Of a stretch of 64,000 nt of DNA, positions 11,460 through 64,000 are shown piece after piece. The DNA is from Armatimonadota bacterium (lineage in GTDB: Bacteria > Armatimonadota > SYMT01). The position numbers were made by a program, and so were the translations under genes. Every line of letters starts with the position of its first letter. The stretch's first letter is position 1. Where the stretch lies: the NCBI GenBank assembly GCA_041690135.1, contig JAWLHY010000003.1:768001-832000 (forward strand). Direction: 5' to 3'. Below the pieces are notes generated by a model. That model saw nothing but the letters and a program-made list of their open reading frames with translations, searched no databases and was not told the origin of the DNA.

Positions 11460-11588
11460 ACAGGAGCGCGGAAGAGGGAACCGATTTGGCCCGCGCCCAC
11501 ACGGGTCTCAGGAGAATACACGGAAGGGCGCGGAAGAGGGGGACCGATTTGGCCCGCGGAATACGCGGAAATGCGTGGAAGAGGGAAG

Positions 11589-11820
11589 AAGGGCTATCGG
11601 AGCGTGCCCAATACAGCGGTGAAATCTCTGCAGGAACAGCCGGTTAATTGGTGGACATTCCGATCGCCCGCCGATCCTCAACGCGAAGGTGAGCGTGGAG
11701 CCCGCGAAGGCCAGAACCAACCCCCTACTGCGCGAAGGCTTCCCCCTTCTCTGCGTCGGAGAAGTTTACGCCGCGGGGGTGGGGGATCGAGGGGGATGCG
11801 GTTACCACGGTCACCGCACC
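11589..11820 (+). repeat. REPIN/MITE-like dispersed element, copy 1 (left REP truncated)
   Basis: Colinear similarity to 62216-62487 and 63001-63273 (gggctatcgg ... tactgcgcga.ggcttcccccttc.ctgcgtcggagaagtttacgcc ... ggttacc.cggtcaccgca). Confidence 0.85.
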
Positions 11821-11853
11821 CGGTAGTGTTAACGTGCAGGGGAATTGCGGAAT

Positions 11854-11892
11854 CCAGGTGAGGAGGGCGGGCGTAGCGCCCTCCTCACCTGG
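11854..11892. terminator. Perfect 16-bp hairpin between convergent genes
   Basis: ccaggtgaggagggcg-N7-cgccctcctcacctgg. Confidence 0.5.
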
Positions 11893-12192
11893 TTCGGGGT
11901 GCGGGGGTTGGCGGCCTGGGTGAACCGGCAGGCGGGGGTGCACGTCTCCTCCCTGGGGCCTTCTTGTTCAGGCTTTGAGGAGGGGAAGCGGTGCTGATGA
12001 GCCCCAGCCCTCCCCGCCGCGCGGGCCGTCCCAAGCAGGCATTTGGGAAAGTGGAGCTTCCCTGTTCTGGGGTGCGCACCCGGACGAAAAGGCGGTGGCG
12101 GCCCGGTGGTCGGCCTCGGATCCGGCACTCGACGTGCTGGAAAAGGGCGACCGCCGGTAACACCCGTGAGCCGCAGTGCCCCAGAGTCTCGT

Positions 12193-13332
12193 TCAGGTCA
12201 GCACTTCCGCGAGCGAGACCATCCGGCTTTTCTCGGCGAGGGATCTGGCGCCCGCGTGAACAATGGCGGTCACTTCCAGGATCTCCTGGTGAGGAACCGG
12301 TTCCTGCCGCGTGCGGATCATCTTGCGGAAAGTATCGGCCATCCGGAACATCTCATAGTGGTGGCCGAGACCCCAGTTGCCCTCGATGGCCGGGGTGTAC
12401 TCGTAGGTTCGCTTCTGGAAGTGAACCGAGGTCGAGCAGTACTGGGAGGCGATATCGGGACGGCCGTACCACACTTCGGCGGGCATCCGGTCGCGGTAGG
12501 TGAGCAGGGCGTGACAGGTACCGCCAAAGGCATAGGCGCTCACGGCGTCCACACCCGGCCCCGCCAGAGTCATGATCGTCCAGATCGGATGCTGCGAGTA
12601 GATCATCCAGCCAGGCAGGGTATAGCCGCCGCCGAGACTGGCGATCACGTACTGGAGGGTGCCGTAGTCCCCCGCGTCGCGCATCCGCAGGGCCTGTTCG
12701 GTCCCCCACTGGTGTCGAAAGAGGCTGGAGGACATCAGCGGAGCTTTGCGTTCCTGGGCCAGCTTCAGAATGCGCCGGGTTCCCGCCACGGTTCCGCCGA
12801 TCGGCTTATCGCAAAAGGTCGGCAGTCCCTTCTCCAGCCCGGGAGCGACCAGGTCGTAGTGGTCCCGTCCATCGCCGGAGGCATCACCCATCCACACCGC
12901 GTCGACTTCGCGCACCATCTCCTCGAGGGAGCGCGCCACCTGAACGCCGGGAAAAGCCTCCGCGTACTCCGCCGCGTTGGCAGGATCGGCGTCGTAGACG
13001 TGGGTGATGCGGGTATCGGAGAACGGAATCTGGTCGAAGTTGTCTTCCAGCCGCCGGCGATACTTGTCGAAGTACGCAACGTTTGCGGGATCGACATACT
13101 TCTTGATGGCGTCGTAGTTGAGCGTCGGATGGAAGAAGTGCGCGAAGTGCCAGGTATGCCCGTTGGTCTTGTGCGGCTTGCCGTTTAGAGTGGATGAGGT
13201 CACCCCGATGCGATAGATCCTGGCGGCAGGCGGATCGGCGGCCGGCACCGGGGTGTGGAGGGCGAGGGCGGGAAGGGCCGCGGTCGCGGCCCCGAGGAGG
13301 CGACGGCGAGAGGGATCCGCTGGGGTGGACAT
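12193..13332 (-). CDS. Gfo/Idh/MocA-like oxidoreductase with twin-arginine signal
   Basis: SRRRLLG Tat motif; GLPTFCDKPI and MSSSLFR motifs. Confidence 0.75.
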   Translation of the reverse strand: MSTPADPSRRRLLGAATAALPALALHTPVPAADPPAARIYRIGVTSSTLNGKPHKTNGHTWHFAHFFHPTLNYDAIKKYVDPANVAYFDKYRRRLEDNFDQIPFSDTRITHVYDADPANAAEYAEAFPGVQVARSLEEMVREVDAVWMGDASGDGRDHYDLVAPGLEKGLPTFCDKPIGGTVAGTRRILKLAQERKAPLMSSSLFRHQWGTEQALRMRDAGDYGTLQYVIASLGGGYTLPGWMIYSQHPIWTIMTLAGPGVDAVSAYAFGGTCHALLTYRDRMPAEVWYGRPDIASQYCSTSVHFQKRTYEYTPAIEGNWGLGHHYEMFRMADTFRKMIRTRQEPVPHQEILEVTAIVHAGARSLAEKSRMVSLAEVLT

Positions 13333-59591: not shown

Positions 59592-60986
59592 TTATTTGTT
59601 GCCGGCGGCGACGACGATCGGGACGGGGAGCAGGATGCTTTTGAGCGTGCCGGTGGGCAGCTCGTAGAGGCGGACCTGGCCGTCGAAGCCGCCGGCGGCG
59701 AGTTGACCGCTCTTGGGGTGCCAGGCCAGGGTGTGGATGCTGCCCTGGTGGCCCTTGAGGGTGGCGACGCGGCTGCCATCCGCCGTTTTGTAGACCCGCA
59801 CCTCGGCGGAGCGGCCGCCCACGGCCATCAGGGCGCCGTCTGGGCTGAAGGCGAGGGCGTGGATCGGTCCGTCCAGCTTCTCGAAGGTCCGCAGCAGGTT
59901 GTAGTCCTCCCGGTTCATCGTCCGCGCCTGCTTCTTATAGATGGAGTAGTAGCGGACCAGCCCCTCCTCCCCGCCGACGGCGACCTCGTCCGTGGCCGGG
60001 TTGCGGGCAATGGCGAAGTAGCCGCCGTTGTAGACCTGGTAGTTGACGTCGTCGACGAAGTTCTTCGTGGCGATCTCCACGAGCTTGATCGCCTTATCGC
60101 GGCTGGTGCTCACCATGTGGGAGCTGTCGCGCGTGAAGGTGGTCCCGAACACCCAGTCGCTGTGGTTGTCGAACTTGAGTAGCGGCTGGAGCTCCGGCAC
60201 GGTGTGCAGGTACACCGACTTCTCCGCGCTGCCGCAGGCCAGCTTCTTTCCGTCCGGCGAGAAGGAGACGCCGTAGAGGAGATCGAAGCCGACCTCCACC
60301 GACCGGACCTGCTTGCGGGTGGCAACCTCCCAGAGCTGGATCTCGCCGAAGCGGCAGGAGTTGCCGCCGACCGCCGCCAGATACTTGCCGTCCGGGCTGA
60401 ACGCCACGCTCTCGATCCGCTCGCTGCGCCCCACGAGGCGACCCACCAGCCCGCTGCCGTCCGCCTTGTGCAGCAGGACCTCCCGATAGCCGTTCACCGC
60501 GAGGAGGGCGCCGTCCGGCGAATAGGCCAGGGTGGTGGTGACCGGTAGCTTGGGGTAGACCGGCGGGTGCTCCGCGCTGATGGGGTCCTTCGGCTGGGGG
60601 GTGTCGTCCTTCCCGCCCTGCGCGATCCAGAGGCGGATCGTTTCCACCTCGACGGCGGAGAGGGGCGGGGCGTCCTTCGGCATGGAGGGCTTCTTGCCGC
60701 TGATCGACTTGTAGAGGGGACTATCCGCCGGTTTGCCGGAGACGAACCCCGGCCCCGCGACCCCGCCGGACTTGAGGGCGGCGTAGGTGACTACGCTGAG
60801 CTTGCCGCTGCGGTTGCCGGGGAAGTGGCAGCCCTGGCAGCGTTTGGCGAGGAGGGGGCGCACCTCGCGGTGGAAGCTGACCGCTTTGCTGCCGGCCGGG
60901 GCCTGGGAGAAGGCCGGCAGGGCGAGGCCCGCCAGGAGCGCGCTGCCCGCGCCGAGGAGTAGGGGAAGGGAGTACTGCTTCAACAT
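59592..60986 (-). CDS. Planctomycete cytochrome c (PSCyt1) + WD40 repeat protein
   Basis: SFHREVRPLLAKRCQGCH; repeated AFSPDG..LA, GH...I..LAW, DG.VRLY. Confidence 0.92.
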   Translation of the reverse strand: MLKQYSLPLLLGAGSALLAGLALPAFSQAPAGSKAVSFHREVRPLLAKRCQGCHFPGNRSGKLSVVTYAALKSGGVAGPGFVSGKPADSPLYKSISGKKPSMPKDAPPLSAVEVETIRLWIAQGGKDDTPQPKDPISAEHPPVYPKLPVTTTLAYSPDGALLAVNGYREVLLHKADGSGLVGRLVGRSERIESVAFSPDGKYLAAVGGNSCRFGEIQLWEVATRKQVRSVEVGFDLLYGVSFSPDGKKLACGSAEKSVYLHTVPELQPLLKFDNHSDWVFGTTFTRDSSHMVSTSRDKAIKLVEIATKNFVDDVNYQVYNGGYFAIARNPATDEVAVGGEEGLVRYYSIYKKQARTMNREDYNLLRTFEKLDGPIHALAFSPDGALMAVGGRSAEVRVYKTADGSRVATLKGHQGSIHTLAWHPKSGQLAAGGFDGQVRLYELPTGTLKSILLPVPIVVAAGNK

Positions 60987-61119
60987 CGAGGAAATACTGC
61001 CATCGGCTTTCTGCCGGCTTTTCAACGGCTTTCCAGAGCTTGGTCGGCCCGCGAGAAGCGACCCGAACAACCGCAAAGTGTTATGAGAGCGGCCAATTGC
61101 CGGAGTTGCGAGAATCTTG

Positions 61120-61770
61120 GGTACGTGATGCGTGTTGCGTAATGCGTGAGGCTTGCGTGCGTGGCGGGTGCGGGGGGCAGGGATTTCGCCTCGAACGTGG
61201 GGAGGCGTGAGGCGTGAAACGTAAGGCGTGAGGCGTGAGGTCTGGGGCAGGGGCGGGGTTGGTTTGGCATGGGTGGGTTCTGGGGTGTGAGGCGTGGGGT
61301 CGGGTGCTGGGTGGCTGCATAGGGCAGGATGAGTGCCTCGAGCGCATGGAGACGTGATGCGTGAGGTCTAGACACAGGAGGGGGGCGGGGGCATGGAGTG
61401 GTGGGGTGATCAGAGGGTGCGCTGCGCGGGCCAACACGAAATCGCGAAAGCCCATACGGGCCCGTAGGGAGCGAAATCACGAAAGGGAACGGTCGAGGTG
61501 GCTGCGATGGGGCTTCCTGACACGGAGGAGCCGGAGGCGATGGAGGGACACGTGGGCGGATCCGCGACTGAAGGGGATGCGGTGAATGGTGCAGGATGAG
61601 GCCGGGGCAAGCGAGCGTTGCACGTTTTTGCACGTACTTGCACTCCTGGGGGCTGATTTCTGGAGGTGCGAGGTGAGAAGGGCGAAGTGCGAGTTGCCCA
61701 TGGCCTTCTGCCCACTGCCTCCTGCCTTCTGCGCCCGGGTTGGACGAATCTGGACGGTTTTGGACATGGG
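61120..61770. repeat. Non-coding region rich in heptamer and 10-bp phased repeats
   Basis: gcgtga(g/t) runs, gccttct runs, tgcacg-N4 x3, tggacg-N4 x3. Confidence 0.7.
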
Positions 61771-62215
61771 AAGAAAAATCTGGGGCCTCCTTCGCGGTAC
61801 TGGCATGAGGAACCCCTTCCGGCGGCTGGCACTGCGGGGTGCCTGGTCGCCGTGGCTCCCAACCTCCCAATAGTCCGGAGCGGTGGGAATCTCAACCCCA
61901 ATTTTGGAAATTAGTTCCAACTAATGTTTGCGGAGGGTGGGGGGGAGTTGCGGACCCGTTTTGCACGCCTGCCACGAACCTGTTTCTCCGCGCAGGTCAG
62001 TGAGGCTTGCCGGAGTGCCGGCGCTTGCGCGGCCTCCACTTGGTGTACCGTACCTGCCCAGTAGCTTGCACGCACCTCTTGGCGGTCGGATTTGGTGCGT
62101 GGAGCAAGGATTGTGTACTGGGCTTCCGAGGGGCGTGGGGATCCATGTCGGCGGCCGCTCACCTTGACGGCACGCAACGTGGTGCGGGTTCAAGGACCCG
62201 GCTCGGTTTGTCCGT

Positions 62216-62487
62216 GTGACCTCATCCCCAACCCCTTCTCCGACACAGAGAAGGGGCTATCGGCGTGAACCCAGTACGACGCCGTACTTTCCGCAGAAGC
62301 CACCGGTCACTTTGGCCGACATTCTGATCGCCCACCAAGCCCCCACACGACCGTGATCGTCGAGCCCGTGAAGACCAGAGCCATCCCTGTACTGCGCGAG
62401 GGCTTCCCCCTTCCCTGCGTCGGAGAAGTTTACGCCCCGCGGGAGTGGGGGACCGAGGGGGATGAGGTTACCGCGGTCACCGCAGCC
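62216..62487 (+). repeat. REPIN/MITE-like element, copy 2
   Basis: Inverted REP pair gtgacctcatcccc..ccccttctccgacacagagaagggg / ccccttccctgcgtcggagaag..ggggatgaggttac. Confidence 0.85.
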
Positions 62488-62644
62488 GTTAGTATTGTCG
62501 CACTCCAAGCCTTGCAGCACCCTGGTAGACCGCTGGATGCGTTGGCCACGGCGGTCCACCCCCACGTGCGTGGGGAGTAATGCTTCGTCTCACCCGTGGG
62601 GGCGCAGCTACGTTGCTCCGTCCTCTTGCCCCAGGGTGCTACCG

Positions 62645-62901
62645 TGGGGTCGCCCCCAGCCCTTGCTTTGGGCCACCGCCCTCCCGCGTGTTAAGCCTCC
62701 GCTCGGCCTTTCACGCTCCCTGCCCGCCAGCGGGCGCCCGTCGCTAGCGGCCGGCTCCGGCGTGCAGCCCAAGACCTGGGCTCCGCGCTGCGGACGGGCG
62801 CTTGGCCTAGTCGTGGCGTGGACGGGCGGCGACCCGACAGCTTCGAGCTATCCCCCCGTCCGGGGAGATCACATGGGCCCGGCGCTGCCGGGCTACGGTT
62901 T
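62645..62901 (-). ncRNA. Candidate structured ncRNA, copy 1
   Basis: Multiple hairpins, a compensatory change versus copy 2, and mismatches that become G-U on the minus strand. Confidence 0.4.
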
Positions 62902-63000
62902 CCGTTCACCCCCATGTGCGTGGGGACCCATTTCCGTGGTCGTTCACCTTGAGGGCACGCAACGGGGTGCGGGTTCAAGGTCTCGATCCGGTTTGGCCGT

Positions 63001-63273
63001 GTGACCTCACCCCAACCCCTCTCCGACGCAGAGAGGGGCTATCGGTGTGTGCCCAAGCCGACGGTGCATTTTCCAGAGATGCCGTCGGCTACGACTGCCG
63101 ACGTCCTGAACTTCCACCAAGCCGCAGCGCAACCGTGACCGTGACCGTGGAGTCTGCGAAGATCAACACCAGTCCTCTACTGCGCGAGGGCTTCCCCCTT
63201 CTCTGCGTCGGAGAAGTTTACGCCCCGCGAGGGTGGGGGACCGAGGGGGATGAGGTTACCGCGGTCACCGCAC
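63001..63273 (+). repeat. REPIN/MITE-like element, copy 3
   Basis: Same architecture as 62216-62487. Confidence 0.85.
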
Positions 63274-63429
63274 TGGTGGACGATGACGTGCCAGCGCCTT
63301 CAGAATCCGGGTGGAACGCTGGTTGTCGTGCCGCAGTTCATCCCCACGTACTTGGGGACAGTTCGCGACTCCCGGGTTGAAGCGTAGGCATAGCCACTTT
63401 AGGTTGGTCCGCTCCCACTACCACTATCA

Positions 63430-63683
63430 TGGGGTCGCCCCCAGCCCTTGCCTTGGGCCGCCGCCCTCACGCGTGTTGGGCCTGCGCTCGCCCTTTCACG
63501 CGCCACCCCTCGGGGGTCCCCGGCGCTAACGGGCGGCTTCGGCGTGCAGCCCAGGACCTGGGCTCCGTGCTGCGACCGGGCACTGGAACCACGCCGGGCG
63601 TGGACGGGCGGCGACCCGGCGTCTTCGAGCTATCCCCCCGTCCGGGGAGATCACAAGGGCCCGGCGTTGCCGGGCTTTGGTTT
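63430..63683 (-). ncRNA. Candidate structured ncRNA, copy 2
   Basis: As copy 1; abuts the terminal repeat of the CRISPR array. Confidence 0.4.
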
Positions 63684-64000
63684 CCGTCCATCCCCACGTG
63701 CGTGGGGACAACTGGGCTCTGCTGGAAGCGTTCGCTGAGACGCCCGGTCCACCGCCACGTGCGTGGGGAAAACATCGGCTGCCGAGATGATGATCTCCAT
63801 GTGTGCGGTCCACCCCCACGTGCGTGGGGATAAGAGCGCCTTCGGGAGTTGGCGCGCTCCGGCGAGCGGTTCACCCCCACGTGCGTGGGGACAAGGCCGT
63901 TGCGGATAAGGCCCGTGTCCAGGCCCACGGTTCACCCCCACGTGCGTGGGGACAAGGACGGTAACACCGAGGGTGAGGCGTACGACGACGGTTCACCCCC
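63684..64000 (-). CRISPR. Type I-E-like CRISPR array, trailer end (continues beyond the window)
   Basis: 29-bp repeat CGGTTCACCCCCACGTGCGTGGGGACAAG at 63684, 63745, 63806, 63867, 63928, 63989 (partial); 32-bp spacers; degenerate on the left. The reverse complement ends in AACCG like I-E repeats. Confidence 0.96.

Follow-up and report, generated by a model that had tools for sequence, protein, structure and literature searches.

The window analysed in this work is a 64,000-nucleotide (nt) stretch of the genome of an Armatimonadota bacterium (G000, contig C3, positions 768001-832000), and the structure of interest lies near its high-coordinate end, where a type I-E CRISPR array gives way to isolated repeats that enclose, or box, long blocks of DNA. 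This array, denoted array 1, occupies C3 831684-834457 and comprises 46 repeats and 45 spacers of 32 nt; in the window it is seen from position 63684 to the end as 29-nt repeats and 32-nt spacers with a 61-bp period, and it continues past the window, the boxed blocks lying at its low-coordinate end. Two further arrays are present on the same contig, array 2 (C3 ~836918-838907, ~33 repeats) and array 3 (C3 848895-850155, ~21 repeats), and the three together hold 96 spacers of 25-40 nt. The minus strand of the locus encodes a full I-E gene set in which cas6e is intact (PF08798, E 7.5e-51). A search of the 9.1-Mb genome for the repeat (27 nt, at most 5 mismatches) returned 104 matches, and because all of them fall on one strand in one ~20-kb stretch of C3, a chance origin of the repeat copies is excluded.

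The direction in which the arrays are read follows from three features: arrays 1, 2 and 3 all have the leader motif AGCAAACTTAG..GC..TTGC next to their high-coordinate repeat, the cas genes lie on the minus strand, and the repeats at the low-coordinate array ends depart from the consensus. It follows that the minus strand is the one on which the arrays are read, in agreement with the sense-strand I-E repeat, which we take to end in ..GAACCG, and the boxed blocks of the window stand at the trailer of array 1. If R denotes a repeat and A and B the two kinds of block found between boxed repeats, the minus-strand order is array 3, R-B-R-B-remnant, WYL, cas3, cse1, cse2, cas7, cas5, cas6e, array 2, R-A4-R-A3-R, cas1, cas2, array 1 and finally R-A2-R-B2-R-A1-R-B0-remnant. 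Repeat-boxed A or B units close all three arrays on the trailer side, with the layouts R-A-R-B-R-A-R-B (array 1), R-A-R-A-R (array 2) and R-B-R-B (array 3).

All of the boxed features of the window lie on the minus strand. The trailer end of array 1 (63684-64000) is of regular type I-E up to its last repeat, R4 (63684-63712), which is followed in the direction of reading by unit A2 (63363-63683, 321 nt), boxed repeat R3 (63334-63362), unit B2 (62931-63333, a 403-nt B-type block), boxed repeat R2 (62902-62930), unit A1 (62581-62901, 321 nt), boxed repeat R1 (62552-62580), unit B0 (62145-62551) and, at the far end of B0, the outermost and decayed repeat, a half-repeat at 62133-62144 in which 62133-62141 are nine bases matching repeat positions 17-25. 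The 25-nt repeat cores start at 62554, 62904, 63336 and 63686 and then every 61 bp, with start-to-start steps of 350, 432, 350, 61, 61, 61 and 61. The repeat search and its coordinates bear out the initial annotation of this stretch, which had listed extra repeats at 62552, 62902 and 63334 with a remnant near 62133, and had pointed out that the distances from 62552 to 62902 and from 63334 to 63684 are both 350 bp. Its proposal of a fixed 350-bp spacing, however, describes only two of the four boxed A units of the genome; because the other two have spacings of 335 and 354 bp, 350 bp is not a fixed ruler. The ~782-bp unit that it took to be a diverged duplicate is indeed built of blocks that are 71-89% identical (families D1 and D4-D7), but it is not a simple tandem pair: the 782-bp unit is a composite of A and B, and A-only and B-only versions end the other two arrays. 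Across the locus the inserts between boxed repeats measure 321, 403, 321, 305, 325 and 404 nt, and they fit neither the ~32-33-nt spacer length nor the 61-62-bp period of I-E arrays. Reads from two soil DNA runs supplied one 232-nt contig identical to 63279-63510, and otherwise short fragments with nothing on the ends or joints of the units.

Array 2 and units A4 and A3 form a segment (C3 836229-838907, L001:4229-6907) between cas6e and cas1, with 41 nt from the cas6e stop to array 2 and a gap of 56 nt between the final boxed repeat and the start of cas1, while 51 nt separate the cas2 stop from array 1. In G002 and G004, the two closest relatives with a I-E system, the cas6e-cas1 distance is 73 and 15 nt, and because the two genes are near-adjacent there, array 2 together with A4 and A3 is read as a derived 2.7-kb insertion in the operon. 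When the 96 spacers were compared with the genome, just chance matches of 17-23 nt were obtained, and since the spacers have no real genome match, the arrays are not aimed at A or B.

Several further observations concern the arrays themselves. The leaders of arrays 1 and 2 lie only 51 and 41 nt from the cas2 and cas6e stop codons. A perfect palindrome of ~56 nt (C3 836904-836960, L001:4904-4960) has its centre at the repeat hairpin that separates array 2 from A4, its arms being the 5' flank of A4 and the reverse complement of that flank at the position of the expected first spacer; it could be a strong array-end hairpin or the trace of a rearrangement mediated by a hairpin. In array 3 the two spacers nearest the trailer (C3 848924-849018, L001:16924-17018) start alike and give an identical partial BLAST match, and two spacers of array 1 that stand two positions apart (C3 833848-834001) are likewise duplicated, a sign of repeat-mediated duplication within arrays. 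The WYL/WCX-domain gene (C3 846750-847754, L001:14750-15754), which shares the strand of cas3 and immediately precedes it upstream, is probably the regulator of the system; two B units are placed between the WYL/WCX gene and array 3.

The boxed repeats have not decayed uniformly. The nine of them stand in the array's own orientation, each with 2-8 departures from the array consensus over its 29 positions, and in these repeats, which were themselves recognised by their core, the 16-nt hairpin core carries 6 changes in 144 positions as against 33 in 117 for the 13-nt flanks (Fisher p 4.5e-8); when the two decayed end remnants are added, the counts become 22 of 176 and 50 of 143 (p 2e-6). A stem of at least 5 bp is kept at all nine internal unit boundaries. 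In the window, R1 has an intact hairpin core and 3 flank changes, R2 has 1 core change and 4 flank changes, and R3 has 2 core changes, with a stem still of at least 5 bp, and 4 flank changes. The CCCCA..TGGGG stem, which the initial annotation had described as kept in all copies, is present in all four window repeats, but the half-repeat has lost the 5' arm of the hairpin (+ strand), with 4 of 16 core and 12 of 13 flank positions changed by an ungapped count. Retention of the hairpin is in keeping with Cas6e still using it. When R2-A1-R1 is folded as a single sequence, the result is more stable than the folds of its shuffles (z -3.9), and both the family helices of A and the 3' repeat hairpin form in it.

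Unit A belongs to a family of elements that extends well beyond the arrays. In this genome 16 nhmmer matches were obtained, of which four are boxed by repeats, two in the window (A1, E 4.5e-89; A2, E 3e-86) and two after array 2, whereas the other 12, on contigs C2, C5, C7, C11 and C6, are all without CRISPR repeats. The unit measures 250-330 nt, and where it is boxed ~8 nt separate the repeat from its first hairpin. When one genome per species was scanned with an exact pattern, the 32 stretches recovered all belonged to a single related Armatimonadota metagenome-assembled genome (MAG), G005, which holds at least 47 distinct full-length copies; eight further copies were found on seven metagenome contigs and seven, with a core covariance model, in genome G006. 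This 82-position model (covariance model R1), on which A1 scores 68.7 and A2 65.4 bits, detects the family in 3 of 151 genomes of the phylum, all three of one family, with 16 copies in G000, at least 29 scored copies in G005 and 7 in G006. Rfam 15 (E up to 1), applied to the window tail and four other A-bearing loci, gave nothing relevant, the matches to Chlorobi-1 (16 bits, on the repeat hairpin) and mir-3622 (26 bits) being at chance level, and no published description of the family was found in a literature search that had supplements outside its scope.

The evidence that A is structured comes from covariation. An alignment of 14 copies yields 43 predicted pairs, 15 of them with compensatory changes. 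In a MAFFT alignment of 62 sequences with an RNAalifold consensus, the basis of the counts that follow, 96.0% of the cells at paired positions are paired, compared with 79.3% in shuffles, 22 of 36 pairs show change on both sides, and double-change cells number 326, compared with 85.7 +/- 7.5 in shuffles (0 of 500 reach the observed value) and 37-84 when the partners are slid, figures that must be read with the caveats that the structure was taken from the same alignment and that the copies are related to one another. The signal is also strand-specific: the ratio of G-U to A-C cells is 188:18 in the sense of the CRISPR RNA (crRNA) and 75:50 in the opposite sense, and the consensus energy is -60.6 kcal/mol in the former and -52.0 kcal/mol in the latter. 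A1 lies in the crRNA sense.

The copies carried by the arrays are not decayed like junk. A1-A4 form 30-33 of the 36 consensus pairs (33 in A1, 32 in A2), while solo copies form 29-36, and the mutual identity of A1-A4 is 94-99% in the 81 columns that the family conserves but 71-79% elsewhere. When 24 of the 62 copies were placed in a tree (the full 14 from this genome, 7 of 45 from G005 and 3 of 3 from G006), A1-A4 fell in an unresolved polytomy with other copies of their own genome.

Copies of A mostly come two by two: in 13 pairs, two unlike structured arms diverge from each other across 96-141 bp. The arms, ~250 nt each, fold independently and are not mutually complementary. Such pairs are seen in this genome at L003:4388-5041, L004:4570-5180 and L005:4713-5283 and 11818-12560, and in the related MAG at L053:763-1336 and 12 further places. 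The whole pair appears to be the unit that is copied, the C5 and C7 pairs being paralogous arm by arm. No recurrent neighbour gene was found: ten neighbouring proteins share no function, and when 332 neighbouring open reading frames (ORFs) were clustered, one cluster of six resulted, several members of which overlap A copies and which looks like read-through of A. Proteins with Planctomycete-type PSCyt/PSD domains adjoin other A copies. The orientation of A relative to neighbouring genes is random (28 to 27), by which a role as riboswitch, untranslated region or leader is rejected. Genes for Y1 transposases and reverse transcriptases exist, and none was present at those A loci that were inspected. 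Beside the solo copy C2a a possible degenerate repeat was considered and dropped for want of a convincing alignment. Unit A is either a family of free-standing RNA genes or a non-coding mobile element that needs its structure in order to spread.

The distribution of A bears directly on the interpretation put forward in the initial annotation, in which the array transcript would be read on into the tail and cut into long cargo RNAs, and which had raised the question of whether the unit always lies beside I-E arrays. In this genome and the relatives searched it does not: 12 of the 16 copies here, and the relatives' copies examined, are without repeats, and neither Cas6e nor I-E Cas1 was detected in G005 (98% complete) or G006 (94% complete). 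A is not dependent on CRISPR, because copies elsewhere lack repeats and because G005, the genome richest in A, has no detectable I-E system; its INDEPENDENCE from CRISPR elsewhere shows that A needs no CRISPR, and the association in this genome would be a local capture. A pattern for the array-type A subfamily matched 0 metagenome contigs, and published cases of long structured inserts boxed by repeats were not found in literature searches, supplements again being outside the scope.

In its strongest form the cargo interpretation holds that the tail exists in order to express A, and perhaps B, that Cas6e gives the products defined, protein-capped ends, and that these particular copies need CRISPR for their maturation. 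It is supported in part: the units lie in the crRNA direction at the trailer, cas6e is intact, the hairpin cores are conserved, and A is structured with a matching strand signal. It is also favoured by the retention of the family-conserved columns and pairs in A1-A4, by the way in which whole members of A fill the space between repeats, ~8 nt from repeat to first hairpin, and by the presence of units at all three arrays. Against these must be set the 12 of 16 own copies and all examined G005 and G006 copies that have no repeats, the at least 47 copies in a nearly complete G005 without detectable Cas6e or I-E Cas1, the finding of the arrangement in one genome only, and the resemblance of B to a mobile composite; both blocks are genome-wide families. 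A dedicated cassette is thus regarded as an improbable account. A related proposal, that the I-E locus has been recruited as a maturation platform in which A and B would be transcribed within the pre-crRNA and cas operon transcript and excised by Cas6e, so as to bear a 5' handle like that of a crRNA and a 3' hairpin capped by Cas6e, the cas1-cas2 message being freed by the same cuts, is likewise put forward with low confidence.

Unit B is a block of ~400 nt (403 nt in B2, 404 nt in one array 3 unit) organised around inverted hairpins of the kind found in repetitive extragenic palindromic (REP) sequences and miniature inverted-repeat transposable elements (MITEs). B0 consists of two inverted REP/MITE-like hairpin modules around a core of ~150 nt; it is 80.7% identical to B2 over 358 nt and 76-77% identical to the two B units before array 3, the distal one of which is 90.6% identical to B2 over 310 nt. 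Besides these two units, B recurs once as a partial solo copy on the minus strand of the window at 11587-11830, which has no CRISPR repeats, is 79-87% identical to the other copies and shares alignment columns ~48-345. In the five-copy alignment a 90-nt segment is near-invariant, and 14-bp inverted termini lie inside the block. The two inverted hairpin modules (inverted repeats I1 and I3) match ~30 further places in the genome, which has 9 Y1_Tnp matches and is rich in REP-like families; no specific link between B and a REP-associated tyrosine transposase (RAYT) was shown among these. B looks like a MITE/REP composite rather than a cargo RNA. The solo copy at 11587-11830 is preceded by GGAAGAGGG-type short repeats, which resemble a CT-rich motif of the array 3 leader region.

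The DNA beyond the tail is of a similar character: the 1.1 kb that separate the tail from the neighbouring gene (window 61000-62130) are a patchwork of dispersed repeats. It includes a REP-like element of ~150 nt (61931-62085) with roughly 80 BLAST matches across most contigs, several copies of which flank a Y1_Tnp (RAYT-like) match at C9:14121-14351, and GC-rich short tandem repeats of the CGTGAGG type (61120-61370) with many matches elsewhere in the genome. The gene downstream of the tail (59592-61076, minus strand) encodes a 494-amino-acid protein in which a CxxCH-type haem motif and WD40-like repeats are recognised by eye.

This setting raises the question of whether the tail is an inert fossil, in which selfish repeats gathered in the decaying end of an old array for want of selection against them, the tail being transcribed or cut to no purpose and its hairpins seeming to be kept through gene conversion with the live array and because decayed ones go unrecognised. 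The initial annotation had itself named, as grounds for abandoning its proposal, the possibility that the blocks are common genome-wide repeats, and this is partly the case, both A and B being dispersed in a REP-rich genome with 9 Y1_Tnp matches. The patchwork past the tail and the decay of the outermost repeats point the same way, and degenerate repeats recombine less, which would let such a tail persist. On the other hand, the contrast between core and flank is strong and holds with the remnants added, the hairpin is found at every one of the nine internal boundaries although the blocks themselves have diverged by 10-29%, and A1-A4 are undecayed at the positions the family conserves. The A4-A3 region, moreover, is unlikely to be silent, because it forms part of the cas operon, a short way upstream of cas1, and the three arrays of the system hold 96 spacers. 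An inert tail is likewise regarded as an improbable account.

A further possibility is that the boxed repeats specify regulatory cr-like RNAs of the CreA/CreR or mini-array type (Cheng et al., PMC8501985; preprint 10.1101/2023.03.10.532045), the bases beside each boxed repeat serving as a short pseudo-spacer by which Cascade would be directed to a promoter. Repeats that stand alone and mini-arrays are frequent, being present in 19% of I-E loci according to Table 1 of the preprint of Shmakov et al. (PMC10120712), and the units described here adjoin cas genes. The inserts, however, are 305-404 nt and not spacer-sized. A seed-level search (10 of 11 positions) with eight pseudo-spacers, confined to the 22.5-kb locus, gave seven weak matches, none of them with an AAG/ATG-type protospacer-adjacent motif (PAM), the PAM set being what we take to be that of type I-E, and blastn-short with the pseudo-spacers beside boxed repeats returned paralogous units only. 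This explanation is consequently held to be very improbable. The units show no similarity to plasmids, phages or viral contigs in the collections searched.

The long blocks are complete copies of two dispersed elements in spacer position, not spacers, and the explanation that is favoured here, at about even chances, is that these elements were captured by the array, shuffled, co-transcribed with it and cut at the hairpins that have been kept. The anatomy of the locus, the family membership of the blocks, the covariation and strand signal of A, the conservation of the hairpins and the independence of A from CRISPR elsewhere are established here; the capture route, transcription, cleavage and any benefit are inferred, in the following terms. 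A and B would have entered an ancestral I-E array in spacer position, most likely once, conceivably by insertion into a spacer or by a rare Cas1-Cas2 integration of long DNA, neither of which has left a recognisable scar. Recombination between repeats would then have duplicated and shuffled A and B, and duplication of the array would have carried them along. The units are probably transcribed with the pre-crRNA, because all of them are sense-oriented in one co-directional string of arrays and cas genes, and transcripts bound for cas1-cas2 would cross, or start in, A4 and A3. The flanking hairpins would be kept most likely because Cas6e still cuts there; such cutting would give the last crRNA its proper end, would release RNAs of ~350 and ~430 nt, and would free downstream RNA such as the cas1-cas2 message. 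We read the release of A and B RNA as a tolerated by-product or an insulating device, and not as the purpose of the array.

A number of points weigh against capture followed by co-transcription and cutting. The hairpin core could have stayed intact without selection, by gene conversion with the array next to it as the source, and the recognition of repeats by their core biases the core-versus-flank count, though all nine internal boundaries do carry a repeat. The conserved columns of A1-A4 could reflect selection for mobility in their source copies, conversion from other copies, or descent from distinct active sources, instead of a function where they now stand. The folded form of A may be RNA or single-stranded DNA, and the G-U signal could come from either. 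When R2-A1-R1 is folded, A takes up some of the pairing of the 5' repeat, so that the hairpin of that repeat is not clean. Simple scans of window positions 60900-64000 returned neither a sigma-70-like promoter nor a terminator, and ahead of cas1 they gave a single weak promoter-like site. Neither for A nor for B was a split spacer, a duplicated target or any other scar of insertion seen, the ends of both elements being not sharply defined. Finally, the repeat-boxed arrangement has been met in this genome only: no CRISPR-like hairpins were found near the A loci of the related MAG, G006, G004 or the seven metagenome contigs, and although I-E Cas1 is present in 12 of the 40 relatives searched, it is on short contigs or just 51-70% identical, and the trailers are not comparable.

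Several known systems share features with this arrangement. As in I-E trailers with degenerate repeats and anchor spacers, the tail lies opposite the leader and its repeats drift outward, the outermost being half-decayed; in place of 32-33-nt spacers, however, it contains dispersed elements of 305-404 nt, it recurs at three arrays, and its hairpin core is selectively kept. Insertion sequences (ISs) and MITEs are known to interrupt CRISPR arrays, and here too dispersed, probably mobile copies lie inside an array, B having REP-like hairpins and, inside the block, 14-bp inverted termini. Unlike such interruptions, the units fill the whole interval between repeats, show no recognised split spacer or target duplication and are old (10-29% diverged), and A is a covarying structured family without a transposase. 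REP sequences and their hairpin-forming doublets (REPINs), which are associated with RAYT (Y1) transposases, are short palindromic intergenic units that occur as inverted doublets. The many palindromic intergenic repeats of this genome, its 9 Y1_Tnp matches and the two inverted REP-like units of B recall them, but no link of A or B to a particular Y1 gene was found, and the arms of A are ~250 nt, fold on themselves and are not mutually complementary. The hairpins of Cas6-family nucleases (Csy4, Cas6e) have been used synthetically as RNA-processing insulators. If Cas6e cuts the boxed repeats, these would be natural hairpins of the same kind that separate crRNAs, long structured RNAs and the cas1-cas2 message; the synthetic devices are engineered and their cleavage is proven, whereas cleavage here is putative.

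Two further comparisons involve repeats that stand apart from regular repeat-spacer units. I-E and I-F mini-arrays, CreA of CreTA and CreR (PMC10120712, PMC8501985 and 10.1101/2023.03.10.532045) likewise consist of ectopic or degenerate repeats that lie within cas loci or next to them, that the system's own Cas6 presumably binds and cuts, and for which a role outside defence has been proposed. Their inserts are spacer-sized, with a seed match and a PAM at a promoter, whereas the inserts described here have ten times that length and are structured, and the search of the locus gave no target of this kind. The solitary repeat units of phages, or RNA anti-CRISPRs (Racr), are also repeat hairpins outside regular repeat-spacer units (PMC10651486). 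They are viral decoys, whereas the repeats reported here are chromosomal, lie in cis with the arrays and are unmatched in the phage, plasmid and viral collections. From its known relatives, namely degenerate trailer repeats, mini-arrays and cr-like RNAs (PMC10120712), and mobile-element insertions in arrays, the present arrangement differs in the size of its inserts, in the involvement of a structured family, and in its recurrence at three arrays with selective retention of the hairpin.

Cutting at the boxed hairpins, if it takes place, would make the locus a natural case in which a CRISPR nuclease processes long non-guide RNAs and operon transcripts, hitherto mainly an engineering trick, and would demonstrate that units of ten times spacer length can persist in arrays over long periods. 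If the tail is silent, it would still be a clear example of the spreading of foreign blocks among arrays by repeat recombination. The A family is the most solid new object of this analysis. Considered apart from CRISPR, it is a concrete candidate for a new class of RNA or for a new non-coding mobile element, uncatalogued and present in dozens of copies per genome in a few Armatimonadota genomes.

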